Shown in pieces: positions 14,376 through 64,000 of a stretch of 64,000 nt of DNA; positions within the stretch are counted from its first letter, which is position 1, and each line of letters opens with the position of its first letter. Source of the DNA: Heterodontus francisci (taxonomy: Eukaryota); contig NC_090399.1 of the NCBI RefSeq assembly GCF_036365525.1, positions 14,879,558 to 14,943,557 on the forward strand, in the 5' to 3' direction. The position numbers and the translations under genes were made by a program. The notes below the pieces were generated by a model. That model was not told the DNA's origin and made no database searches. It worked only from the letters and a program-made list of their open reading frames with translations.

Positions 14376-14418
14376 ATGTTCTGGGTTGGATGCGTTTGGT
14401 CATTCCTGTTGTTCTCGA
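14376..14418 (+). CDS. Exon 1 (signal peptide) of NCR3-like gene 1
   Basis: gaACCATG Kozak context, hydrophobic MFWVGCVWSFLLFS, donor A|gtaagt in phase 1, matching the V exon acceptor. Confidence 0.75.
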
Positions 14419-17400: not shown

Positions 17401-20400
17401 CCTCACGAATAACTGCATAATTATAGGCAATTTTAAGGATTGAATTGTAAAATGTTCAGTTGCTTTCTATTTCCCTACTTGCGATTTGGTTAACATCCCA
17501 GCCTGCTCCGATTGGAAAAAAAATCGATTATAAAATAGGCCACGGGTAAGGCTTAACATGCAAGGGTGCACTTTTAACTCGCTGTCCCGAGTGTAAAACT
17601 GGAGTCATGTTTGGCTCCCCGTTATAGAAACCGCCCGATTTTCATTAATTTAGATTTTCAACTTATCACCAGTTTACACCCCGGCGCCAACTGAAAACCT
17701 CACCCACTGAACTAATGTAAAAGATAATCGGGAATCAAAGTGTAATATTCATGCTTCTGACGTACTTTAGGCCACAAGGCGGAAATTGGTGAATATTTTA
17801 AGGGAGCTATTTTAATTGTTCTAGAGCAGCCGCCGTTTGAATTATTAAAGACATTACTTATCATTTATATCCATCAATGAAATACCAGTTGCCCATTTTA
17901 TTTGTGGAGCTGTCTGAGGGGGAAAGACAGCAAACTCACATAGACTGGAAATCTGAGTTTTAGGTAGAAAATACTGGATAGACTCAGTAGGTCAGATAAA
18001 TGAAGAGTGTAGGGTTTGTGCGTTCAGGTCTAGGACGCTTCTTCAGAACAGTTATTCAGTATTGACAAATGCTTCCTGACTTGCTGAGCTGTGAATTTAC
18101 TCTTATCCCTAATTCAGGGCAGGACTTTCTGAGGGCAGTTTGCTGGTACCGAAAAAGTAAAAATGTAGAGTGGCGTGACTAACTGATGAGGTTATTTCAT
18201 GTTTGCAGGAGTGACTGCCTCGGGTGTTACAGTCATTCAAGAACCGCGTTCGGTGAGCGTTACCGAGGGTAAAACATTGCATCTATCATGTAGTTTCATT
18301 GTGAACACAGCCCTTTCAGGAAACAACCCCATCGGTTCCCTCATTTGGTACAAAGATTTCAGAACGTCTATAGTTTGTAACAACTGCACGGAATATATCG
18401 GACGAGTTCAGAAAACCGGTTCAAGACCCTTCCGCGAATTTAAAAACGGATCGGTAACAATCACCGGGGTGAAACTGAACGATACAGGAAGGTATTACTG
18501 CGAGGTGGTTCTTAACATCGGTGGAAAGGGCACCGGAGAAGGCACAGAAGTCACAGTAAACCGTAAGTTTGTATTATCTTACATCTTATGCCTTTAGATT
18601 CAGTTCCCCCCTCCAAAAAAAAAAGATATTTTTATTGGAAACTCGGGGTACTGTCACCTTTAAGACATAAATTGAAATTTAACCCGGTTGGGTCTTTTCC
18701 GCAGAATAGGTAAACTGGCGGGTTCGGATGCACCGCTGGTATTACACTCTGTCCGATTTTACTCCATTGAAAATAGCAGAGAGCAGTTTGGGGCCAGGTG
18801 TAAAACCGGCGTTCATACAAAATATTTACAGCACAGAAGGAGGCCATTCGGCCCGTCGTGTCTGTGCCAGCTCTCTGCAAGAACAACTCAGCTAGTCCCA
18901 CTCACCCGCTCTTTCCCCCTAGTCCTGCATTTTCTTTCTCTTTAGGTGCATATCCAATTCACCTTTGAAAGTTCCGACTGCATCTCCCTCCACAACACTC
19001 TCACACACTGCATTCCAGATCCTAACCACATGCTAGTAAAACAGTTTTTCTCCCCCTCTCATGTCATTGTTGGTTCTTGTGCCAATCCCTTTAACTTGGT
19101 GTCCTCTGGTTCACAACCCGTCAGCTAATGGGACCAGTTTCTCTCTATCTACTCATTCTAGATTCCTCATGATTTTTAAACACTTCTATTAAATCTCTCA
19201 ACCTTCTCTTCTCTAAGGAGAACAACGCAGTCATCTCCAATCTATCCATGTAACTGAAGTCCTTCATACCGGAATATATTTTTGTAAATCTTTTTTGCAG
19301 CCTTTCTAAAGCCTTCACATCCTTCCTAAAGTGCAGTGTGCAGAATTGGGCCTGATACTCCAGCTGAGGCCGAGCCTGTATTGTGTAAAGTTTCACCATA
19401 ACTTCCTTGCTTTTGTACCCTATGCCTCTATTTATAAAGTCCAGGATCCTGTTTGCCTTTTTAACTGCTTTCTCAACCTGCCCTGCCATCTTCAATAATT
19501 TGTGCACATATACCCCCAGGTCTCTCTGTTCAAAGAACAAAGAACAAAGAAAATTACAGCACAGGAACAGGCCCTTCGGCCCTCCAAGCCTGCGCCGATC
19601 CAGATCCTCTATCTAAACCTGTCGCCTATTTTCTAAGGGGCTGTATCTCTTTGCTTCCTGCCCATTCATGTATCTGTCTAGATACATCTTAAAAGACGCT
19701 ATCGTGCCCGCGTCTACCACCTCCGCTGGCAACGTGTTCCAGGCACCCACCACCCTCTGCGTAAAGAACTTTCCACGCATATCCCCCCTAAACTTTTCCC
19801 CTCTCACTTTGAACTCGTGACCCCTAGTAATTGAATCCCCCACTCTGGGAAAAAGCTTCTTGCTATCCACCCTGTCTATACCTCTCATGATTTTGTACAC
19901 CTCAATCAGGTCCCCCCTCAACCTCCGTCTTTCTAATGAAAATAATCCTAATCTACTCAATGTCTCTTCATAGCTAGCGCCCTCCATACCAGGCAACATC
20001 CTGGTGAACCTCCTCTGCACCCTCTCCAAAGCATCCACATCCTTTTGGTAATGTGGCGACCAGAACTGCACGCAGTATTCCAAATGTGGCTGAACCAAAG
20101 TCTTATACAACTGTAACATGACCTGCCAACTCTTGTACTCAATACCCCGTCCGATGAAGGAAAGCATGCCGTATGCCTTCTTGACCACTCTATTGACCTG
20201 CATTGCCACCTTCAGGGAACAATGGACCTGAACACCCAAATCTCTCTGTTCATCAATTTTCCCCAGGACTTTTCCACTTACTGTATAGTTCACTCTTGAA
20301 TTGGATCTTCCAAAATGCATCACCTCGCATTTGCCCTGATTCAACTCCATCTGCCATTTCTCTGCCCAACTCTCCAATCTATCTATATTCTGCTGTATTC

Positions 20401-26400: not shown

Positions 26401-29400
26401 TTTGTTCAAAAAAGGGTGTAAAGATAAACCCAACAACTACAGGCAGTTGGTTTAACTTCAGTGATGGGGAAACAACTAGAAACAATAATTCAGGACAAAA
26501 TTAATAGTCACATGGACAAATGCGAGTTAATTAAGGAAAGCCAGCATGGATTTCTTAAGGCAAAATCGTTTTTAACTATCTTGCTGGAGTTTTTTGAAGA
26601 GGTAACAGAGAGAGTTGATGAGGGCGATGCTGTTGATGTGGTGTACATGGACTTTCAAAAGGCATTTGATGCAGTGCCACACAACAGGCTTGTGAGCAAG
26701 GTTATAGCTCATGGAATAAAAGGGACAATAGCAACATGGGTATGGAATTGGCTGAGTGACAAGAAACAGAGAGTAGTGGTTAATGGATGTTTTTTGGGCT
26801 GGAGGAATGTTTGGAGTGGAGTTCCCCAGGGGTCAGTGTCAGGACCTTCTCTTCCTGATATATATTAATGACCTAAACCTTGGTGTACAGGGCACAATTT
26901 CAAAGTTTGCAGATGACACAAAACTTGGAAGCATTGTGAACTGTGAGGAAGATAATGTGGAACTCCAAAAGGACATAGACAAGTTGGTGGAACGGGCAGA
27001 AAGGTGGCAGATGAAGGTCAATGCACAGAAATGTGAAGTGGCTCATTTTGGTAGGAAGAAAATGGAGAGACAATATAGAATAAAGGGTACAATTCTAAAG
27101 GGGGTGCAGGAGCAAAAAAACGTTAACTCTATTTTTCTTCCCACACATGCTGCCTGACCTGCTGAGTACTTCCAGCACTTTCTGTTTTTGTTTCTGATTT
27201 CCAGCATCCACAGTATTTTGCTTTTGTGTTGTTGTAGTAATCCAAGAGTCTGCCCTATGATAGTAAGACTATGAATTCAAATCCCATCACAGCAACCAAG
27301 GAATTTAAATGAATGTGAAAACAGAAAGCTCGTATTGGTATTGGTGACCGTGTAACTATCAGATTGGTACAAAATCCATCTGGTTTGTTCATGTGCTTGA
27401 AGGAAGGAAATTGCTATTCTTTCCTGATCTTCACCTATTGCAATGTACTTGACTCTTTACTGCCCTCTGCAATGGCCGAACAAACAATTCAGTTGTCAAG
27501 AAGGCAGCTCGCTACCATCTTTTCAAGGGCAATTAGGGATGGGCAGTAAATACTGGTCTTGCCAGCGACGTTCTCATCGTGAATTAATTGACAAAAAACC
27601 GAACGCTTCATTGACCTTTAAATCTCAATAATATACACTACATATCCTCCATTTAATAAAATACTCAACTAGAATAAACCAATTTTACAAACAGTTTACC
27701 CACTACAACACTTATAACCAGTTACTGTGCTGAAAAAGATATGGATATACGTCGCCACTGAAGTAAGTGATCGTCAGATGCACATTAGGTTCGACAAATA
27801 CACCCAACGACTACGACGTGAGGATGAAATGCGTGGCAAGTATACAAAATCCATTTCTTAAATAACCGTCATATCAAAAAACAAGTGACAGAAAAATAAA
27901 TTTGAGTTGATGATCCCTTCTTCATTATTGTGTTGTCACATGACTGTGTTTGGCAACACAGGTCACTGCACACCCAGTACTCCAGGAATATAAATTCGTC
28001 TGCTCCGAATAGGAGAGGATTGCTGATTCAGGTCATTTGCGATTCTGCACGTCTGATCTCACGATCCTGTCTGGGCAGACTAGGGAAACAAAGTACTGAA
28101 ACAGACTTTCCTCTGCCGTTGAAACACAGCGTGGGAGCAAGGACACATTTATTTAGTAATGAAACTGGACACCTCCCTCCCATGCTAATATTTGGGAAAT
28201 TCACCGTTTGCTGGGTATGCAGACAGAATTCGTGGTATCTTCAGATGTGTTGCAATAAGTACACTAATAAAAATCCGGGCTCCACCTAACCGAAAAGAAA
28301 TAACTTGTTGAGCTTTTTTCTGAGAAATAGATCGGCATAGAAGATAGTGCAACACTTCACCTCCCTACACCCCCCGCCACGCTCCGTCCCCCACCCAGCT
28401 CCGAACCCTGCTGAAATTTGCAGGTTTTTGAAGTACAAGTTTGTATTCACCTAACCATCGCTTTCTTGTGGTTTTATCTGCTCAAGATCTTGCTGCTGTG
28501 CTGCGCCTTGAGCGTTAAGTCAACTGCGGTTTCTTGACGGAAGGCTACAGCTAGCAATAGCAACCTTCAAAAACTCAAAGGGAGATGGAAACAAAAAACA
28601 ACAACAGCTTTTGATTTATCTCCTCAGGTCATGACGATTCTGAAGTGACATCTCCACCGAATCAAGGGAACATATATCTGCTTATATTTTCAGTGTTGGT
28701 GCTTGTGCTGCTGGGTCTCATCCTTGTTAAAATAATTTCAACCCTGCTCTGCTGTGGCCCTCGAGGTAATTATCCTGAATTCAACTTCGTTACTACATGG
28801 AAAGAGTTACTGCAAGCATATTCCTTTCTTGCAAAGTTTGTATGATTATACACATAAAAGAATAACACGGCTGATGTGTAGCTTACGTTGCAATGTAGCG
28901 ACACTCAAATAGTCAAAATGATTGATGAATAGGAATAATCAGGGTTTTTCATGATTATTTGTATTTACCAAAAGGCACGGAATGACGTGATTTCAATAAT
29001 TTGGAAAACGTGTAATCTTGCATAATTCGAAACCATAAACGCCATGGCTTTTGACATACACATATTTTAATTGGCGCAAAAGCAGTTAATCGGAAGACCC
29101 CCATGTGTGTTAAATGGAACAGTAGCGCAGTATGCACTAGTGTGAGGTGATGCATTTTGGGTGGACTAACAAGGCAAGGGAATTTACAATGGGTGGTGGG
29201 ACACGAGGAAGTACAGAGGCCCAGAGGGACCTTGGTGTTCTTGTTCATAGATCACTGAAGGCAGCAGCACAGGCAGATAAGGTGGTTAGGAAGGCATATG
29301 GGATACTTGCCTTTATTAGCCGAAGCATAGAAAATAAGAGCAGGGAGGTTATGATGGAGCTGTATAAAAGGCTAGTTAGGCCACAGCTGGAGTACTGTGT

Positions 29401-32400
29401 ACAGTTCTGGGCACCACACTATAGGAAGGATGCGATTGCACTGGAGAGGGTGCAGAGGAGATTCACCAGGATGTTGCCTGGGCTGGAGCATTTCAGCTAT
29501 GAAGAGAGACTGGAAAGCCTAGGGTTGTTTTCCTTAGAGCAGAGAAGGCTGAGGGGGGTGGGGGGGGGGCCTGATTGAGGTATACAAAATTATGAGGGGC
29601 ACAGATAGGATAGATAGGAAGAAACTTTTTCCCTTAGCGGAGGGATCAATAACCAGGGGACATAGATGTAAGGTAAAGGACAGGAGGTCTAGAGGGGATT
29701 TGACGGAAAAAAATTTCACCCAGAGGGTGGTTGGAATCTGGAACACACTGCCTGAAAGGGTGGTAGAGGCAGGAACCCTGCTTTAAGAAGTATTTAAATG
29801 TGCACTTGAAATGCCATAGCATGCAAGGCTACGGGCCAAGTGCTGGAAAATGGGATTAGAATAGATAGGTGTTTGATGGCCGGCACAGACACAATGGGCC
29901 GAAGAGCCTGTTTCTGTGCTGTATAACTCTAAGCCTCTATGACTGTCTGATGAAAGCTGCCATCGGATGCACCAGAGAATGAGGGAGACTGAGCTTCAAC
30001 TCCCCCACAGCCTTATTTTCCTATTAGAGGCCGATCATCACTGGCATGCCCTTTGCAAGCCAGGTTGTGTGGCATTGGCAATGAAGAAAGGGATTTGGGG
30101 AAGCTTCGGGAGCAGTGAAGTGGTCTGACTGAGGAACCTGGTCAAGTGAGAAGCATGAATAAGAAAAAGCTTGCATTTATATAGCGCCTTTGAGATAGTA
30201 AAAACACCCCAATGTGCTTCACAGGAGCGTTACCAAAAAAAATTTGACACCAAACCACGTAAGCAGGTTTTAGGGCAGCTGGCCAAAAACTGAGTTAAAG
30301 AGGGAGGTTTCAAGGAGGAAAGAGAGGTGAAAAGACATAGAGGGTGAAAAGAGAAGGAAAAAGTGGAATAAATTACAATAGCAAGCCGTGAATCACAACA
30401 AGAAGAATGAAAAATCATCACTGTGGTGTATATTTACGCACCACTTTCAATTAAATGTATTGTTTTTATTCCGTAAAATTATAAGTCATCCAAATAGTAG
30501 AAGATCAAAAACTTATTTGAACACTCAACTTAGAAAATGCCAGAATATGCCATGATTTCACAGCAGTTTTAAATATTTCGCTGCAGAGGCCATTTAATAG
30601 TTATGTATTTTAATGTTTTTGTCACATTGCAAGATATTAGATGTTTCAGTAAGAACAGAGAAGATGGTAAAAGGGGGGGGGGGCGGTGTGGCATTGTTAA
30701 TCAAGGAGAGTATTACAGCGACAGAAAGGACATTTGAGGACTCGTCTACTGAGGCAGTATGGGCCGAGGTGAGAAACAGGAGAGGAGAGGTCACCCTGTT
30801 GGGAGTCTTTTATAGACCTCCGAATAGTTCCAGAGATGTAGAGGAAAGGATAGCGAAGATGATTCTCGACAGGGGCCAGAGTAACAGGGTAGTTGTTATG
30901 GGGAACTTTAACTTTCCAAATATTGACTGGAAATACTATAGTTTGAGTACTTTAGATGGGTCAGTTTTTGTCCAGTGTGTGCAGGAGGGTTTTCTGACAC
31001 AGTATGTAGACAGGCCAACCAGGGGCGATGCCACATTGGATTTGGTACTGGGTAATGAACCCGGCCAGGTGTTAGATTTAGATGTAGGTGAGCACTTTGG
31101 TGATAGTGATCACAATTCGGTTAGGTTTACCTTAGCGATGGGCAGGGACAGGTATATACCGCAGGGCAAGAATTATAGCTGGGGGAAAGGAAATTATGAT
31201 GCGATTAGGCAAGATTTAGGATGCGTAGGATGGGGAAGGAAACTGCAGGGGATGGGCACAATCGAAATGTGGAGCTTATTCAAGGAGCAGCTACTGCGTG
31301 TCCTTGATAAGTATGTACCTGTCAGGCAGGGAGGAAGTTGTCGAGCGAGGGAGCCGTGGTTTACTAAAGAAGTTGAAGCGCTTGTCAAGAGGAAGAAGAA
31401 GGCTTATGTTAGGATGAGACGTGAAGGCTCAGTTAGGGCGCTTGAGAGTTACAAGCTAGCCAGGAAGGATCTAAAGGGAGAGCTAAGAAGAGCAAGGAGA
31501 GGACACGAGAAGTCATTGGCGGATAGGATCAAGGAAAACCCTAAGGCTTTCTATAGGTATATCAGGAATAAAAGAATGACTAGAGTTAGATTAGGGCCAA
31601 TCAAGGATAGTAGTGGGAAGTTGTGTGTGGAATCAGAGGAGATAGGGGAAGCGTTAAATGAATATTTTGCGTCAGTATTTACAGTAGAGAAAGAAAATGT
31701 TGTCGAGCAGAATACTGAGATTCAGGCTACTAGGCTAGATGAGATTGAGGTTCACAAGGAGGAGGTGTTAGCAATATTGGAAAGTGTGAAAATAGATAAG
31801 TCCCCTGGGCCAGATGGGATTTATCCTAGGATTCTCCGGGAAGCAAGGGAGGAGATTGCAGAGCCTCTGTCCTTGATCTTTATGTCATCATTGTCGACAG
31901 GAATAGTGCCGGAAGACTGGAGGATAGCAAATGTTGTCCCCTTGTTCAAGAAGGGGAGTAGAGACAGCCCTGGTAATTATAGACCTGTGAGCCTTACTTC
32001 GGTTGTGGGTAAAATGTTGGAAAAGGTTATAAGAGACAGGATTTATAATCATCTAGGGAAGAATAAGTTCATTAGTGATAGTCAGCACGGTTTTGTGAAG
32101 AGTAGGTCGTGCCTCACAAACCTTATTGAGTTTTTCGAGAAGGTGACCAAACAGGTGGATGAGGGTAAAGCAGTGGATGTGGTCTATATGGATTTCAGTA
32201 AGGCGTTTGATAAGGTTCCCCACGGTAGGCTATTGCAGAAAATATGGAAGTATGGGGTTGAAGGTGATTTCGAGCTTTGGATCAGAAATTGGCTAGCTGA
32301 AAGAAGACAGAGGGTGGTGATTGATGGCAAATGTTCATCCTGGAGTTTAGTTACTAGTGGTGTACCGCAAGGATCTGTTTTGGGGCCACTGCTGTTTGTC

Positions 32401-35400
32401 ATTTTTTATAAATGACCTGGAAGAGGGTGTAGAAGGGTGGGTTAGTAAATTTGCAGATGACACTAAGGTCGGTGGAGTTGTGGATAGTGCCGAAGGATGT
32501 TGTAGGGTACAGAGGGACATAGATAGGATGCAGAGCTGGGCTGAGAGATGGCAAATGGAGTTTAATGCGGAAAAGTGTGAGGTGATTCACTTTGGAAGGA
32601 GTAACAGGAATGCAGAGTACTGGGCTAATGGGAAGATTCTTGGTAGTGTAGATGAACAGAGAGATCTTGGTGTCCAGGTACATAAATCCCTGAAGGTTGC
32701 TACCCAGGTTAATAGGGCTGTTAAGAAGGCATATGGTGTGTTAGCTTTTATTAGTAGGGGGATCAAGTTTCGGAGCCACGAGGTCATGCTGCAGCTGTAC
32801 AAAACTCTGGTGAGACCGCACCTGGAGTATTGCGTGCAGTTCTGGTCACCGCATTATAGGAAGGATGTGGAAGCTTTGGAAAGGGTGCAGAGGAGATTTA
32901 CTAGGATGTTGCCTGGTATGGAGGGAAGGTCTTACGAGGAAAGGCTGAGGAACTTGAGGTTGTTTTCGTTGGAGAGGAGGAGGAGAGGTGACTTAATAGA
33001 GACATATAAGATAATCAGAGGGTTAGATAGGGTGGATAGTGAGAGTCTTTTTCCTCGGATGGTGATGGCAAACACGAGGGGACATAGCTTTAAGTTGATG
33101 GGTGATAGATATAGGACAGATGTCAGAGGTAGTTTCTTTACTCAGAGAGTAGTAGGGGCGTGGAACGCCCTGCCTGCAGCAGTAGTAGACTCGCCAACTT
33201 TAAGGGCATTTAAGTGGTCATTGGATAGACATATGGATGAAAATGGGATCGTGTAGGTCAGATGGTTTCACAGGTCGGCGCAACATCGAGGGCCGAAGGG
33301 CCTGTACTGCGCTGTAATATTCTAATTCTAATATTAAACAATGATAAAGTACGGATAATATAATTTGGAAAGTATAAGTTTCTGTTAATAAAGAAGCATA
33401 TTTCCATCTCAAAGTTTTCATATTGTATTGACAGTAGTACCATACTATTTTGGATTGTTGTTTTTGTTCTGGTTTTTAAAAAATCTAATCGACTTAAAAT
33501 ATTTTATAGATAAAAGAACTGGAACCCAAGTTGTAAGTAAGGTATGTAATATATTGTAACTAAGACATTTAATTTGATTTGCAGTGTGATTCATTGCTGT
33601 TGTCGGTGACCCTTTTTGAGAAAGCTACATAAAGAGATAAGATCCACCTACAGGAAACTTATTATCGTGCAAAAGATTGGAACGTGTCCTGCCAAAATGC
33701 ATCACCTCACACTTCTCAGGATTAAATTCCATTTGCCACTGCTCTGCCCATCTCACCAGCCCATCTATATCATCCTGTAATCTAAGGCTTTCCTCCTTAC
33801 TATTTACAACTCCACCAATTTTCATGTCATCTGCGAACTTACTAATCAGACCTCCTATATTCACGTCTAAATCATTATTGTACACTACAAACAGCAAAGG
33901 TCCCAGCCCCGATCCCTGTGATACACCACTGGTCACAGGCTTCCAATCGCAAAAGCACCCCTCAAAAATCACACTCTACCTCCTGCCACTAAGCCAATTT
34001 TGCATCTAATTTGCCAAATTGCCCTGGATCCCATGGGCTCTTACCTTCTTAACCAATCTCCCATGCGAGACCTTATCAAAAGCCATACTGAAGTCCGTGT
34101 AGACTACATCAACTGCTTTACCCTCATTTACACATCTCGTCACTTCCTTGAAAGATTCAATCAAGTTTGTTGGACATGATCTCCCCCTGATAAAGCCATG
34201 CTGACTATTCTTAATTAATCCCTGCCTCTCCAATTGGAGATTAATCTTGTCCCTCAGAATTTTTTCCAATAGTTTCCCTACCACTGATGTTAGACTCACC
34301 GACTTGTAATTACCTGGTTTATCCCTGCTACCCTTCTACCACATTCACTATCTTCCAGTCTTCTGGAACCTTTCCTGTGGCCAGAGAGGATTTGCAAATT
34401 TGTGTTAGAGCCACTGCAATCTCTTCCCTTGCCTCACATAACAGCCTGGAATACATCTCATCTAGGCCTGGGGATTTATCCACTTTTAAGCCTGCTAAAA
34501 TCGCTAATACCTCCTCCCTTCCAATGCTAATTTGTTCGAGTATATCACAATCCTCCTCCCTGATCACTACACCTACATCGTCCTTCTCCATAGTGAACAC
34601 AGATGAAAAGTAATCATTTAAAACCTCACCTATGTCCTCCGGCTCAACACAGATTGCCTCTTTGGTCCCTACTCTTTCCCTGGTTATCCTCTTGCCCTTA
34701 ATATACTTATAAAATGCCTTAGGATTTTCCTTTATCTTGCCTACCAGTGTTTTTTCATGTCCTCTCTTCGCTCTCCTAATTACTTTTTTAAGTACCCCCC
34801 TATACTTTCTATACTCCTCTGGGGCCTCTGCTGTTTTCAGCACTCCGAATCTGCTGTAAGCCTCCTTTTTTTTCCTGATCCAATCCTCTATATCCCTTGG
34901 CTTCCAGGGTTCCCTGGACTTGTTGGTCCTACCCCTCACCTTTACGGGAACATGTTGGCTCTGAACTCTCACTTTTTCCTTTCTGAATGACTCCCACTGG
35001 TCTGATGTAGACTTTCCTACAAGTAGCTGCTCCCAGTCCACTTTGGCCAGATCCTGTTTTATCATATTGAAATCGGCCTTCCCCCAATTCAGTACCTTTA
35101 TTTCCGGTCCATCTTTGTCCTTTTACAGAACTACCTTAAATCTTACAGAGTTATGGTCACTATCCCTGAAATGCTCCCCCACTGACACTTCTACCACTTG
35201 TCCAGCCTCATTCCCTAGGATTACATCCAGTAACGCCCCTTTAAGCCTTTTGCACTAAAGCTATCCCAGTTAATATCGGGGAAGTTGAAATCCCCTACTA
35301 TTATTACCCTATTATTTTGACACCTCTCTGAGATTTGCCTACATATCTGCTCCTTTATCTCTCCTTGACTATTTGGAGGCCTGTAGTACACTCCCAGTCA

Positions 35401-35768
35401 AGTGATTGCCCCCTTTTGCATAGTTACTGCACCGAGATGATCAGCTATCCTGTCATTTCAAATCTTGTAACAAATGATCTGATTAATTTAAGGACGGAGA
35501 CAGGTCGGAAACTGTTCCTCATGTCGAGCTGAATATCCCCCGATCAAACCCTCCTCATCGGATTGTGTGCGAGGCAGTGAGGTCCGGCGGACAGAATCAA
35601 AACTCAACAGCAAGTGGCTCGGTATCACTTCCAGCAAGTAATGAAGAATCGGTTGTGTCCACGTCATTGTGGCAACCGGATTATAATGAGGAATCGGTTC
35701 GGTTCGAGCCCGTGCAGGCTCCCAGAAGGATGGAAGGGCAGACCGTGTATGCGGCTGTAAGAGTGTAG
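14376..35768 (+). CDS. NCR3: NKp30/NCR3-like type I Ig-superfamily receptor, 5 coding exons join(14376..14418,18209..18562,28628..28765,33510..33541,35493..35768), 280 aa
   Basis: All introns are GT-AG, and the phases chain 1-1-1-0 into an 843-nt stop-free ORF: MFWVGCVWSFLLFSR-VTASGVTVIQEPRSV...YYCEVVLNIGGKGTGEGTEVTVNR-HDDSEVTSPPNQGNIYLLIFSVLVLVLLGLILVKIISTLLCCGPRD-KRTGTQVVSK-DGDRSE...EGQTVYAAVRV*. The symbol denotes family, not proven orthology. Confidence 0.8.
14455..14585. repeat. (CA)n/(TA)n microsatellite
   Basis: Visible alternating dinucleotide runs just inside intron 1. Confidence 0.8.
15165..15810 (-). mobile_element. Old CR1 RT fragment
   Basis: SGVPQGSVLG...FADDTK...CEVMHFGR. Confidence 0.8.
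15990..16478 (-). mobile_element. Penelope-like element 3' end (family A) with hammerhead motif
   Basis: Minus strand encodes GTLQPAGLNIEFNNF* (GIY-YIG C-terminal TLxPxGLN), followed by a terminal repeat also seen at 16915-16970, 17940-18050, 24345-24480, 27120-27225, 37131-37250. Confidence 0.75.
16091..16127 (-). ncRNA. Minimal type I hammerhead ribozyme motif
   Basis: Minus strand AGTT-CTGAAGA-A-GGGTC-ACA-GACCT-GAAA-CG-TT-AACT: intact core, stems I and II, palindromic helix III (AACGTT). Confidence 0.6.
18209..18562 (+). CDS. NCR3: Exon 2: V-set Ig domain with germline J-like G strand (NKp30-like)
   Basis: Acceptor ttgcag|, donor C|gtaagt, phase 1-1. B-strand Cys (LHLSC), IGSLIWYKD (cf. 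human NKp30 IGSVTWFRD), EYIGRV, DTGRYYC, GKGTGEGTEVTV (cf. GVGTGNGTRLVV). Confidence 0.93.
19531..20714 (-). mobile_element. Young 5'-truncated CR1
   Basis: Open 352-aa RT C-terminal ORF, (tgttctt)n tail as in the element at 1-1770. Confidence 0.93.
21772..23391 (+). mobile_element. 5'-truncated CR1 with duplicated 3' tail
   Basis: RT fragments, 3' UTR present twice (23075-23235, 23237-23391), (ctatgact) tail. Confidence 0.88.
23775..27118 (+). mobile_element. Degenerate CR1 (ORF1 esterase + ORF2) with nested PLE fragment and SINE
   Basis: IGDS/GTNDIG-type ORF1 motifs, MGDFNYP, YMDFQKAFD, FADDTK. Confidence 0.85.
25913..26233 (+). mobile_element. tRNA-derived V-SINE (HE1-like)
   Basis: A box tggcgcagtgg, B box ggttcgattc, V-domain gcggagtttgcaagttctccc...gggtgctccggtttcc, CR1-like tail, (taaa)n. 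Confidence 0.88.
28628..28765 (+). CDS. Exon 3: stalk + transmembrane segment
   Basis: Pyrimidine-rich acceptor atctcctcag|, donor G|gtaatt, 138 nt phase 1-1, encodes IYLLIFSVLVLVLLGLILVKIISTLLCC. Confidence 0.85.
29139..29945 (+). mobile_element. CR1 3' fragment
   Basis: MHFGWTNK...RPQLEYCVQFW, CR1 3' UTR. Confidence 0.88.
30632..33332 (+). mobile_element. Young 5'-truncated CR1 ORF2 (EN+RT), frameshifts at homopolymers
   Basis: 600-aa and 299-aa overlapping ORFs, (ttctaa)n tail, atatta on both flanks. Confidence 0.95.
33510..33541 (+). CDS. Exon 4: 32-nt juxtamembrane micro-exon (D)KRTGTQVVSK
   Basis: attttatag| acceptor and AAG|gtatgt donor. It converts phase 1 to phase 0 as needed to join exon 3 to exon 5, and supplies basic stop-transfer residues. 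Confidence 0.6.
33684..35420 (-). mobile_element. CR1 internal fragment
   Basis: ORF2 linker and RT pieces (KSPGLDEMY, FADD). Confidence 0.88.
35493..35768 (+). CDS. Exon 5: cytoplasmic tail ending in ITSM-type TVYAAV
   Basis: tttaag| acceptor, 91 codons open to TAG, non-repeat sequence, C-terminal TxYxxV, AATAAA ~125 nt downstream. Confidence 0.75.
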   Translation, partial: DGDRSETVPHVELNIPRSNPPHRIVCEAVRSGGQNQNSTASGSVSLPASNEESVVSTSLWQPDYNEESVRFEPVQAPRRMEGQTVYAAVRV

Positions 35769-35891: not shown

Positions 35892-35897
35892 AATAAA
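35892..35897 (+). terminator. Candidate polyadenylation signal of gene 1
   Basis: First AATAAA after the stop codon. Confidence 0.4.
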
Positions 35898-46047: not shown

Positions 46048-46250
46048 AGCAAAAACAACCGGATAACAGTGGAAGTTCTCTGCTTTGGCAGCTGATGGTC
46101 GTAGGAGTGAAACTTGCAGTGTTTGTTGTGATCATCATTCTAACAATTTCCCTCGTACATTTCTGCGGATCTGGAGGTTCTCCTGTGACAATCACTGCAA
46201 AGAGAGAGGGAATTGAGCGAAGCGGCAAGTGTGCGATGGAAAACGGTTAA
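46048..46250 (+). CDS. Orphan stalk/TM/short-tail exon of an activating-type NCR3-like receptor (possibly a pseudogene remnant or an alternative last exon)
   Basis: Acceptor tgtttcattctccatag| in phase 1. Encodes QKQPDNSGSSLLWQLMVVGVKLAVFVVIIILTISLVHFCGSGGSPVTITAKREGIERSGKCAMENG* with a Lys in the TM. No V exon was found between 35768 and 46048. Confidence 0.65.
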
Positions 46251-46466: not shown

Positions 46467-49400
46467 CTGGGTCATTGTGGTTTTGATCTCTGGGTTATTG
46501 GGGGTTTTGATCTCTGGGTCATTGTGGTTTTGATCTCTGGGTTATTGGGGTTTTTGATCTCTGGGTTATTGGGGTTTTTGATCACTGGGTTATTGGGGTT
46601 TTTGATCACTGGGTTATTGGGGTTTTTGATCACTGGGTTATTGAGGGTTTTGATCTCCAGGTTATTGGGGGTTTTGATCTCTGGGTTATTGGGGTTTTTG
46701 ATCACTGGGTTATTGAGGGTTTTGATCTCCAGGTTATTGGGGTTTTTGATCACTGGGTTATTGGGGTTTTTGATCTCTGGGTTATTGGGGTTTTTGATCT
46801 CTGGGTTATTGGGGTTTTTGATCTCTGGGTTATTGGGGTTTTTGATCTCTGGGTTATTGGGGTTTTTGATCACTGGGTTATTGGGGTTTTTGATCTCTGG
46901 GTTATTGGGGTTTTTGAACTCTGGGTTATTGGGGTTTTTGATCACTGGGTTATTGGGGTTTTTGATCTCTGGGTTATTGGGGGTTTTGATCTCTGGGTTA
47001 TTGGGGGTTTTGATCTCCAGGTTATTGGGGGTTTTGATCTCTGGGTTATTGGGGTTTTTGATCTCTGGGTTATTGGGGGTTTTGATCTCTGGGTTATTGG
47101 GGGTTTTGATCTCTGGGTTATTGGGGGTTTTGGATCTCTGGGTTATTGGGGTTTTTGATCTCTGGGTTATTGGGGGTTTTGGATCTCTGGGTTATTGGTG
47201 TTTTTGATCTCTGGGTTATTGTGGTTTTGATCTCTGGGTTATTGGGGGTTTTGGATCTCTGGGTTATTGGGGTTTTTGATCTCTGGGTTATTGGGGGTTT
47301 TGGATCTCTGGGTTATTGGGGTTTTTGATCTCTGGGTTATTGGGGGTTTTGGATCTCTGGGTTATTGGGGTTTTTGATCACTGGGTTATTGGGGGTTTTG
47401 ATCTCTGGGTTATTGGGGGTTTTGATCTCCAGGTTATTGGGGTTTTTGATCACTGGGTTATTGGGGTTTTTGAACTCCGGGTTATTGGGGTTTTTGATCT
47501 CTGGGTTATTGGGGTTTTTGATCTCTGGGTTATTGGGGTTTTTGATCTCTGGGTTATTGGGGGTTTTGATCTCTGGGTTATTGGGGGTTTTGATCTCCAG
47601 GTTATTGGGGTTTTTGATCACTGGGTTATTGGGGTTTTTGAACTCCGGGTTATTGGGGGTTTTGATCTCTGGGTTATTGAGGGTTTTGATCTCTGGGTTA
47701 TTGGGGTTATTGATCACTGGGTTATTAGGGTTTTTGATCACTGGGTTATTGGGGTTTTTGATCTCTGGGTTATTGGGGTTTTTGATTTCTGGGTTATTGG
47801 GGGTTTTGAACTCTGGGTTATTGGGGTTTTTGATCACTGGGTTATTGGGGTTTTTGAACTCTGGGTTTTTGGGGGTTTTGATCTCTGGGTTATTGGGGTT
47901 TTTGATCACTGGGTTATTGGGGGTTTTGAACTCTGGGTTTTTGGGGGTTTTGATCTCTGGGTTATTGGGGTTTTTGATCACTGGGTTATTGGGGGTTTTG
48001 ATCACTGGGTTATTGTGGTTTTGATCTCTGGATTATTGGGGTTATTGATCTCTGGGTTATTGGGGTTTTTGATCACTGGGTTATTGGGGGTTTTGATCTC
48101 TGGGTTATTGGGGTTTTTGATCACTGGGTTATTGGGGTTTTTGATCACTGGGTTATTGGGGGTTTTTTGATCACTGGGTTATTGGGGGGTTTGATCTCTG
48201 GGTTATTGGGGATTTTGATCCCTGGGTTATTGGGGGTTTTGATCACTGGTGTTTTAGGGGTTTTGATCACTGGGTTATTGGGGGGTTTGATCTCTGGGTT
48301 ATTGGGGTTTTTGATCTCTGGGTTATTGGGGGTTTTGATCCCTGGGTTATTGGGGGTTTTGATCACTGGTGTTTTAGGGGTTTTGATCACTGGGTTATTG
48401 GGGGGTTTGATCTCTGGGTTATTGGGGTTTTTGATCTCTGGGTTATTGGGGATTTTGATCCCTGGGTTATTGGGGGTTTTGATCACTGGTGTTTTAGGGG
48501 TTTTGATCACTGGGTTATTGGGGGGTTTGATCTCTGGGTTATTGGGGTTTTTGATCTCTGGGTTATTGGGGATTTTGATCCCTGGGTTATTGGGGGTTTT
48601 GATCACTGGTGTTTTAGGGGTTTTGATCACTGGGTTATTGGGGGGTTTGATCTCTGGGTTATTGGGGTTTTTGATCTCTGGATTATTGGGGGTTTTGATC
48701 ACTGGGTTATTGTGGTTTTGATCACTGGGTTATTGGGGATTTTGATCTCTGGGTTATTGGGGGTTTTGATCTCTGGGATATTGTGGTTTTGATCACTGGG
48801 TTATTGGGGTTTTTGATCTCTGGGTTATTGGGGATTTTGATCTCTGGGTTATTGGGGGTTTTGATCTCTGGGATATTGTGGTTTTGATCACTGGGTTATT
48901 GTGGTTTTGATCTCTGGGTTATTGGGGATTTTGATCTCTGGGTTATTGGGGGTTTTGATCTCTGGGATATTGTGGTTTTGATCACTGGGTTATTGGGGTT
49001 TTTGATCTCTGGGTTATTGGGGATTTTGATCTCTGGGTTATTGGGGGTTTTGATCTCTGGCTTATTGGGGGTTTTGATCACTGGGTTATTGTGGTTTTGA
49101 TCTCTGGCTTATTGGGGTTATTGATCTCTGGGTTATTGGGGGTTTTGATCCCTGGGATATTGTGGTTTTGATCACTGGGTTATTGGGGTTTTTGATCTCT
49201 GGGTTATTGGGGGTTTTGATCACTGGGTTATTGTGGTTTTGATCTCTGGCTTATTGGGGATTTTGATCCCTGGCTTATTGGGGGTTTTGATCACTGGGTT
49301 ATTGTGGTTTTGATCTCTGGCTTATTGGGGTTATTGATCTCTGGGTTATTGGGGGTTTTGATCCCTGGGATATTGTGGTTTTGATCACTGGGTTATTGGG

Positions 49401-51008
49401 GTTTTTGATCTCTGGGTTATTGGGGGTTTTGATCACTGGGTTATTGGGGGTTTTGATCCCTGGGATATTGTGGTTTTGATCACTGGGTTATTGGGGTTTT
49501 TGATCTCTGGGTTATTGGGGGTTTTGATCTCTGGGTTATTGGGGGTTTTGATCACTGGGTTATTGTGGTTTTGATCTCTGGCTTATTGGGGATTTTGATC
49601 CCTGGTTTATTGGGGGTTTTGATCTGTGGGTTATTGGGAATTTTGATGCCTGGGTTATTGGGTTTTTGATCTCTGGGTGATTGGAGGTTTTTGATCACTC
49701 TGTTATTGTGGTTTTGCTCTCTGGGTTATTGGGGGTTTGATCCCTGAGTTATTGTTGTTTTGATCCCTGGGTTATTGTGGTTTTGATCCCTGGGTTATTG
49801 TGGTTTTGATCTCTGGGTTATTGGGGTTTTGATCCCTGGGCTATTGGGGATTTTGATCCCTGGGTTCTAGGGGGTTTTTATCCCTAGGTTATTGTGGTTT
49901 TGATCCCTGGGTTATTTGGTTTTTGATCTCTGGGTTATTGGGGGTTTTGATCACTGGGTTATTGTGGTTTTGATCACTGGGTTATTGTGGTTTTGATCTC
50001 TGGCTTATTGGGGTTATTGATCTCTGGGTTATTGGGGGTTTTGATCCCTGGGATATTGTGGTTTTGATCACTGGGTTATTGTGGTTTTGATCTCTGGCTT
50101 ATTGGGGATTTTGATCACTGGGTTATTGGGGGTTTTGATCCCTGGGATATTGTGGTTTTGATCACTGGGTTATTGGGGTTTTTGATCTCTGGGTTATTGG
50201 GGGTTTTGATCTCTGGGTTATTGGGGGTTTTGATGCCTGGGTTATTGGGTTTTTGATCTCTGGGTGATTGGAGGTTTTTGATCACTCTGTTATTGTGGTT
50301 TTGCTCTCTGGGTTATTGGGGGTTTGATCCCTGAGTTATTGTTGTTTTGATCCCTGGGTTATTGTGGTTTTGATCCCTGGGTTATTGTAGTTTTGATCTC
50401 TGGGTTATTGGGGTTTTGATCCCTGGGCTATTGGGGATTTTGATCCCTGGGTTCTAGGGGGTTTTGATCCCTGGGTTATTGTGGTTTTGATCCCTGGGTT
50501 ATTTGGTTTTTGATCTCTGGGTTATTGGGGGTTTTGATCCCTGGGTTATTGGGGGTTTTGATCCCTGGGTTATTGGGGTTTTGATCCCTGGGCTATTGGG
50601 GATTTTGATCCCTGGGTTCTCGGGGGTTTTGATCCCTGGGTTATTGTGGTTTTGATCCCTGGGTTATTTGGTTTTTGATCTCTGGGTTATTGGGGGTTTT
50701 GATCCCTGGGCTATTGGGGATTTTGATCCCTGGGTTCTCGGGGGTTTTGATCCCTGGGTTATTGTGGTTTTGATCCCTGGGTTATTTGGTTTTTGATCTC
50801 TGGGTTATTGGGGGTTTTGATCCCTGGGTTATTGGGGGTTTTGATCCCTGGGTTATTGGGGGTTTTGATCCCTGGGTTATTGGGGGTTTTGATCACTGGG
50901 TTATTGGGGGTTTTGTCCCCTGAGTTATTGGAGGTTTTGATCCCTGGGTTATTAGGTTTTTGATCTCTGGGTTATTGGGGGTTTCGATCACTGGCTTATT
51001 GGGGTTAA
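46467..51008. repeat. 24-bp tandem satellite, ~190 units, consensus GGGTTATTGGGG(G/T)TTTTGATC(T/A/C)CT
   Basis: Directly visible; produces the LISGLLGF/PNNPEIKN pseudo-ORFs. Confidence 0.97.
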
Positions 51009-63327: not shown

Positions 63328-63871
63328 ACAATACAGGAACAAAAAGGATTAATGTTTGTATACGGGAGGAGTCTCAGCTGGCTTGTAGCGATGATATTTG
63401 TAGGTCTACCGACGTTCTTTAGAATTGGGAACGTGAGTGTGTGTTAATGGATGGAGATGATTGCGCACCTAAGAATCTCCTGAGGGCTCACAGTAGATAA
63501 GGAAATGAAGTCGTGAAGGACAGTGAAGAGTGTTATCATGTAAGGCTTGTACTTTTATTTCTCTATGATATATTACAATTAGAATGAAGGTTTTTTGAAA
63601 ATAATGTTTGTGATTCCCAGATCACTGTGAAGCAATGAAACCCGCTGCCCTGCTGTGGACCTGGATGCTACTCTTTAGTAAGCTATTTGTTTTCTTACTA
63701 CACTTCACTGTTGTGTAGTCTGAGAAAGTTAAGTAACTGGTGGTCTTGAAGTATATGGGGAAATGGAAACAAATTTGGCATAATGATGTTATCCCAGCTG
63801 TTGTAGTAGCCCATACAAGGAAGAATGATGTCACTTTGAACATCTAATTGCCACGAGCATTTGTCTTACAG

Positions 63872-64000
63872 CGACAACTGCTAGGAAGATCAAAGTGTTT
63901 CAAACACCACCTTCCATTGAGGCGAGCGAGGGAGAGACTGTCCATCTTCTCTGCACCTACAGCACATCTCACGGTCAACGGATCGGGGCTTTCTCTTGGT
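63872..64000 (+). CDS. NCR3: 5' part of a second NCR3-like V exon (truncated by window end)
   Basis: Acceptor ttgtcttacag| phase 1. Encodes TTARKIKVFQTPPSIEASEGETVHLLCTYSTSHGQRIGAFSW (A' EG motif, B-strand Cys, IGxxxW). Confidence 0.85.

Follow-up and report, generated by a model that had tools for sequence, protein, structure and literature searches.

An NKp30/NCR3-like receptor gene of Heterodontus francisci with apparent loss of two of three cytoplasmic tyrosine motifs

The last coding exon of an NKp30/NCR3-like receptor gene in Heterodontus francisci encodes a cytoplasmic tail with four hexamers that resemble ITIMs in which the tyrosine has been replaced. Alignment with the tails of shark and ray relatives indicates that two of these, VPHVEL (site 1) and VVSTSL (site 3), are genuine lost ITIMs (ITIM 1 and ITIM 2, respectively), and that the other two, IVCEAV (site 2) and VRFEPV (site 4), are most likely look-alikes and not lost ITIMs. 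The receptor appears to be without two of its relatives' three tyrosine motifs, and we think it probable that it is a weakened inhibitory receptor working through the remaining motif, TVYAAV (site 5), and possibly SAP-switchable. All coordinates are positions on the forward strand of the window, the whole stretch of 64,000 nucleotides that was analysed.

The V exon used as a query returned one database protein, P0003, an NCR3-like protein of Heterodontus francisci, which maps to the following five exons.

14376–14418, + strand: leader exon, from the ATG to a phase-1 donor (P0003 residues 1–14; GT donor)
18209–18562, + strand: single VJ-type Ig V exon, NKp30-like (Pfam V-set, E 2.6e-12; best PDB match NKp30)
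28628–28765, + strand: stalk and transmembrane (TM) exon, with uncharged core I148–V166, Lys167 at 28729–28731 followed by IISTLLCC, and predicted helix 145–174
33510–33541, + strand: short cytoplasmic exon (P0003 residues 179–189), joined to the tail exon in the X1 and X2 contigs
35493–35768, + strand: last coding exon, cytoplasmic tail of 91 residues and stop (spliced contigs; AATAAA at 35892)

Contigs from sequencing runs X1 and X2 carry the letters of the short cytoplasmic exon immediately 5′ of the tail exon, and the tail exon is therefore spliced. The joined exons suggest that these contigs derive from transcripts, with the qualification that none of the runs with matching contigs is recorded as RNA. 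The V domain is a single non-rearranging VJ-type IgV in one exon, with the YYC..GxG pattern, and its nearest solved structure in the PDB is NKp30 (4 of the top 5 matches by sequence, and the whole top 4 in both the profile and the fold comparison). Human NKp30/NCR3 and shark NCR3 (e.g. nurse shark QTT61904.1) likewise have a single VJ-type V exon, and the database name is NCR3-like; the published nurse shark NCR3 (P0033) sits at an open fork on both V trees. The receptor is thus NKp30/NCR3-like, encoded by a five-exon V–TM–tail gene with a spliced tail. It differs from human NKp30, which is described in PMC6514059 as having a TM arginine (pairing with CD3-zeta/FcR-gamma) and a tail without inherent signalling, in its uncharged core and its long tail, which has one tyrosine motif and descends from a tail with three. 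Members of the CD28, CTLA4, CD28H, CD28X and PD-1 group are marked by PPP or EIP in CDR3 or by the PD-1 tail consensus, as set out in the available portions of PMC11599192 and PMC12151841; the CDR3 here, YYCEVVLNIGGKGTG, has neither PPP nor EIP, the tail lacks the PD-1 consensus, and identity with any of these is ruled out.

The intron between the TM and short cytoplasmic exons contains retrotransposon-like frames of 604 and 301 residues (30601–33256, + strand), which overlap in different frames and are putatively of CR1/LINE type. Similar fragments are found in large numbers across the window.

The original prediction had proposed four "ghost ITIMs" of the form V/I-x-Y-x-x-L/V, with each would-be tyrosine held by a codon one base away from a Tyr codon. 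These hexamers and codons are confirmed, and they lie in one frame of the tail exon: VPHVEL at 35514–35531 (CAT), IVCEAV at 35562–35579 (TGC), VVSTSL at 35652–35669 (TCC) and VRFEPV at 35697–35714 (TTC). It had also held that TVYAAV (35742–35759) alone keeps its tyrosine; its TAT codon is indeed retained, although as T-x-Y-x-x-V this motif falls outside the V/I rule, and the tail has a second tyrosine in DYNEES, which is part of no motif. Codons one base from Tyr make up 12 of the 61 sense codons, about a fifth as had been estimated, and 15 of the 91 codons of the tail exon. Only four V/I-x-x-x-x-L/V frames occur in the exon, and all four have such a codon at the tyrosine position.

In 100,000 codon shuffles, four or more motifs of this kind were not routine (P between 0.0002 and 0.01 across motif definitions): P was 0.00017 for the motif as originally defined, 0.0035 for S/I/V/L..L/V and 0.0099 when T and I were added. 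Of 53 other tails of 60–200 residues among the matches listed, none has four such frames and two have at least two. The four-motif pattern therefore exceeds codon-shuffle chance, for a motif that was defined post hoc, after inspection of the sequence. When sites 1 and 3 were held fixed, the probability of two extra ghosts was 0.011 with the original motif, 0.078 with S/I/V/L..L/V and 0.12 with the widest motif.

Relatives were collected with phmmer, which gave 223 matches, and sampling used the best 150 of the 223; word-based homologue searches had poor recall, returning P0003 alone or 4 of 8 of their own query rows. The tail alignment has 11 rows representing 9 genes, two of which occur twice; all are shark or ray proteins of the same TM-and-tail type among the matches listed, and the alignment was run in three MAFFT modes. 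Alignment A1 also contains a newt protein, which was omitted here since its tail does not align, and orthology of the tails was judged from the tree and identity rather than from synteny. Among the matches listed, Tyr occupies the site 1 column in 8 of the 11 rows, representing 7 of the 9 genes, in all three MAFFT modes. At site 3 it occupies every row scored (11 of 11 or 10 of 10, depending on the mode), and at site 5 every row with a residue present (6 of 6 or 7 of 7). No row of these has Tyr at site 2 (0 of 11) or at site 4 (0 of 10–11). The tyrosines of relatives at sites 1, 3 and 5 indicate an ancestral tail with three tyrosine motifs.

The closest homologue among the matches listed, P0004 from Chiloscyllium plagiosum, reads TIYAKL, AACTKL, VVYSAP, VRFDPL and IVYATV at sites 1–5, and in the pairwise alignment of the two tails the His, Cys, Ser, Phe and Tyr of H. 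francisci stand opposite Tyr, Cys, Tyr, Phe and Tyr, respectively. The Cys at site 2 is also present in both P0004 and the ray protein P0011, and the Phe at site 4 in the shark protein P0004; this is the only shark homologue in the same V clade among the matches listed. That all four sites are genuine ghosts is rejected on the tail alignments of the matches listed. The proposal of a multi-ITIM tail serially disarmed is supported for sites 1 and 3, the second of which has a TAC codon in a close relative (see below), and is not supported for sites 2 and 4, where the closest homologue listed has Cys and Phe. An ungapped register from site 1, which sets the site 2 Cys, 16 residues on, opposite a Tyr of P0011 and P0019, was discarded: in the alignments with P0004 and P0011 the Cys residues pair with each other, and the H. 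francisci gene shows a four-residue deletion. In P0004, P0005, P0019, P0030 and P0032 motifs have been lost or damaged by other routes, namely a Pro at +3, replacement of the site 1 Tyr by His, deletion and truncation.

Run X5, from a different organism that is a close relative, bears on the timing of the change at site 3. Its contig is identical to the window at 253 of 262 tail-exon bases and has A at 35659, so that TCC becomes TAC and VVSTSL becomes VVYTSL, with sites 2 and 4 unchanged. This base is read from one contig at a depth of 3.9, which is under the tool's depth-5 caution. Six of the nine differences are itemised, and these do not extend to the ends of the contig, near which site 1 (13 bases from the end) and the − 2 Thr of site 5 lie. 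Six random changes would be expected to produce Tyr at sites 2–4 in ~ 3% of cases, and the X5 Tyr agrees with the family state at site 3. At 35659 the X1 (depth 35.9) and X2 (depth 6.9) contigs, which represent one sample, match the window, and this agreement rules out an assembly error. From the X5 reading, a single low-depth contig, we infer that the Tyr-to-Ser change at site 3 was a single recent base change. At site 1 the protein alignments suggest a Tyr-to-His change, likewise by one base.

In its present form the H. francisci tail has no strict ITIM, (S/I/V/L)xYxx(I/V/L) as defined in PMC12151841; the X5 reading would give one, VVYTSL. The retained TVYAAV matches the ITSM consensus TxYxx(V/I) of the same source. 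We infer every signalling step of the model that follows. An ancestral tail with three tyrosine motifs would have undergone the two single-base changes described above, that at site 3 being the recent one. Thirty residues separate this lost site from the retained site 5, a spacing shared with three relatives, and the two may formerly have been a tandem pair suited to both SH2 domains of SHP-1/SHP-2; the ITIM tyrosines of KIR2DL1, Y281 and Y311, are also 30 apart (PMC2064172). A tail with a single site would bind phosphatases monovalently and less strongly. The binding sites of SHP-1 and SHP-2 are reported to be conserved in jawed vertebrates, sharks included (PMC12151841). The surviving TVYAAV could also bind a SAP-type adaptor, because its − 2 residue is Thr and its − 1 residue is hydrophobic.

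Known receptors give examples of what a single motif can do. PD-1 depends chiefly on its ITSM (PMC12151841) and Siglec-7/9 on their proximal ITIM (PMC7165337), while the lone ITIM of NKp44-1 is described in PMC6514059 as recruiting no phosphatase, that is, a lone ITIM can be inert. The tail shares its terminal T-x-Y-x-x-V with PD-1 and CD150/SLAM; its − 1 residue is hydrophobic as in CD150, a property needed for SH2D1A binding, and its + 1 Ala is favoured by the C-SH2 domain of SHP-2 (PMC12151841). Unlike PD-1, it has neither the DYGEL/EYATI consensus nor a partner ITIM, and its V domain resembles that of NKp30 more closely. NKp44-1 likewise combines one V domain with a single tyrosine motif and has a Lys within or close to the TM, and NKp44 has both activating and inhibitory splice forms; its Lys pairs with DAP12 (PMC6514059), whereas that of H. 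francisci follows a complete hydrophobic span.

A different account takes in a further exon of the activating type, which lies 10 kb downstream of the tail exon.

46048–46250, + strand: Lys-bearing, activating-type TM and terminal exon, with an open frame and an AG phase-1 acceptor matching the V donor

This exon is 57% identical to P0154 and, across 33 residues, 61% identical to the TM of nurse shark NCR3 (P0033). A 24-bp tandem array (46467–51004; 190.6 copies, 87% matches) begins ~ 220 bases behind it. Two readings of the exon suggest themselves: an orphan, or an alternative activating end of the NCR3-like gene. In the second case one V exon would have two ends, the ITIM-type TM and tail or the downstream Lys exon, and the ITIM end would be decaying as the balance shifts to the activating form. 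The open frame, the acceptor and the phase speak for such an arrangement, as does the V exon count: neither tblastn with all matches nor the family profile found another V exon, intact or decayed, between 18567 and 63832. Against it, a protein search with P0003 (154–490 aa) gave no isoform with the Lys exon, by a type of search with poor recall (in another run it recovered 4 of 8 of its own query rows), and an orphan left by deletion of its partner's V exon is equally plausible. We regard the two-ended gene as a rather unlikely explanation of the tyrosine losses; that both halves of a receptor pair share a single NKp30-like V exon, with the inhibitory/activating switch made by splicing within one gene, seems to us about equally improbable on these sequences.

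The relatives show how the two ends are distributed. Among the matches listed, a distinct Lys-bearing TM exon occurs in seven relatives. On the V tree both an ITIM-type clade and a Lys-type clade are rejected (AU p 1e-53 and 3e-37, respectively) and the two types are interleaved, which also speaks for a two-ended gene. As neither TM type forms a V clade, the back-ends appear to have been exchanged as units, as set out in PMC2213150 for most new activating Ly49. In two rays the ITIM type and the Lys type carry consecutive LOC numbers; separate adjacent numbers of this kind count against a single gene with two ends. Judged by tree and exon type, the distribution of the two back-ends is the pattern of a paired-receptor family, in which the Lys type would be the activating one by analogy with KIR and NKp44.

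The original prediction went further and read the tail as that of an inhibitory receptor turned activating, and here the evidence is weak. In KIR and Ly49, conversion to an activator requires a basic TM residue and ITIM loss; most new activating Ly49 had the whole signalling domain replaced, and a charge-first order is documented for rat Ly49s3 (all PMC2213150). A conversion under way in H. francisci would likewise have begun with the gain of Lys167, followed by loss of the basic cluster behind it, which would bring the Lys to lie within the membrane, and now by removal of the ITIMs. Lys167 is inside the predicted helix, directly after the uncharged core, and among the matches listed both sharks of the clade have this Lys and none of the ray ITIM-type TMs does. 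The stretch behind it, IISTLLCC, has a mean hydropathy of 2.19 against − 1.18 in P0004, and the H. francisci gene is the only one of 10 among the matches listed without a strict ITIM. However, the best 19-residue TM span, I148–V166, is complete and uncharged ahead of the Lys, P0004 has the same Lys and retains three tyrosines, and the last tyrosine motif is intact. The presumed activating members use a separate exon, in which the Lys lies near the start of the span; in 7 of 8 it is followed by at least 15 uncharged residues. Fewer than three tyrosines at these columns are found in 5 of the 10 genes among the matches listed, and the best 19-residue core is uncharged in 9 of the 10. An atlas search with the TM and tail gave no score above 0.81. 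Conversion to an activator is, in our estimate, unlikely.

The four hexamers could also be related at a deeper level, all of them descending from a 45-nt ITIM unit by tandem duplication, with Tyr lost from sites 2 and 4 before the sampled lineages split. Autocorrelation of the tail exon DNA has peaks at lags of 45 and 90 (lag 45, P 0.0002, corrected 0.003), and the candidate codons are numbers 9, 25, 55, 70 and 85 of the exon. A 16-nt direct repeat (35639–35654 and 35684–35699, 94% alike, spacing 45 nt) precedes sites 3 and 4, direct repeats in the exon have spacings of 45 and 90, and sites 3 and 4 have 16 of 30 non-motif bases in common (P 0.0013, one of 15 pairs tested). This likeness is absent, however, in the three relatives that share the 30-residue spacing (P 0.51, 0.30 and 0.11), site 2 matches no other unit when the motif codons are excluded (P at least 0.06), and no row of the alignment has Tyr at either site. 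Tandem Repeats Finder found no repeat in the tail exon. A shared origin of all four sites is thus doubtful, and it would be compatible with the explanation preferred here for sites 1 and 3. A short local duplication may have helped to produce the look-alike at site 4.

Finally, the losses could be neutral decay and not tuning, with the ITIM end drifting under relaxed selection in a decoy or a redundant paralogue. The six itemised coding differences from X5 all change the amino acid, the exon differs from X5 at 9 of 262 positions and the 3′ UTR at 5 of 163, and the varied routes by which relatives have lost motifs would fit drift as well. Six of six non-synonymous is, however, within the neutral expectation (P 0.13–0.17) and so does not discriminate drift from selection, and the frame, the splice sites and the terminal motif are intact in an exon that is spliced. 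We give this account little weight relative to that of an attenuated inhibitory receptor.

ITIM loss and the exchange of signalling domains are processes well known from KIR and Ly49. KIR-L/KIR-S and inhibitory/activating Ly49 likewise have related ectodomains on an ITIM tail or a charged TM, with ITIM loss and back-end exchange (PMC2213150); the H. francisci gene differs in having no clear new TM charge and one tyrosine motif remaining, and in that the activating type of its family uses a separate exon. Our literature search found no description of shark NCR3 genes losing ITIMs, and Kinlein 2021 and Flajnik 2012 may already describe the ITIM-type and Lys-type subtypes. The tail would represent ITIM erosion in progress in an NK-type receptor of cartilaginous fish, with naturally occurring Tyr and Ser versions that differ by a single base. 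The shark and ray NKp30-like genes are indicated as a paired-receptor family with two interchangeable back-ends, which bears on whether NKp30 was paired ancestrally.

Further members of the family are encountered in H. francisci itself. The leader (63635–63677) and the start of the V exon (63872–64000, both + strand) of a neighbouring NCR3-like paralogue are cut by the end of the window, and across 39 residues this V start shares 85% identity with P0007, in the second V domain of that protein. Three further Heterodontus paralogues, P0024, P0035 and P0050, are recorded on a contig 74,466,956 long, the length also given for that of P0003, which suggests one gene cluster.
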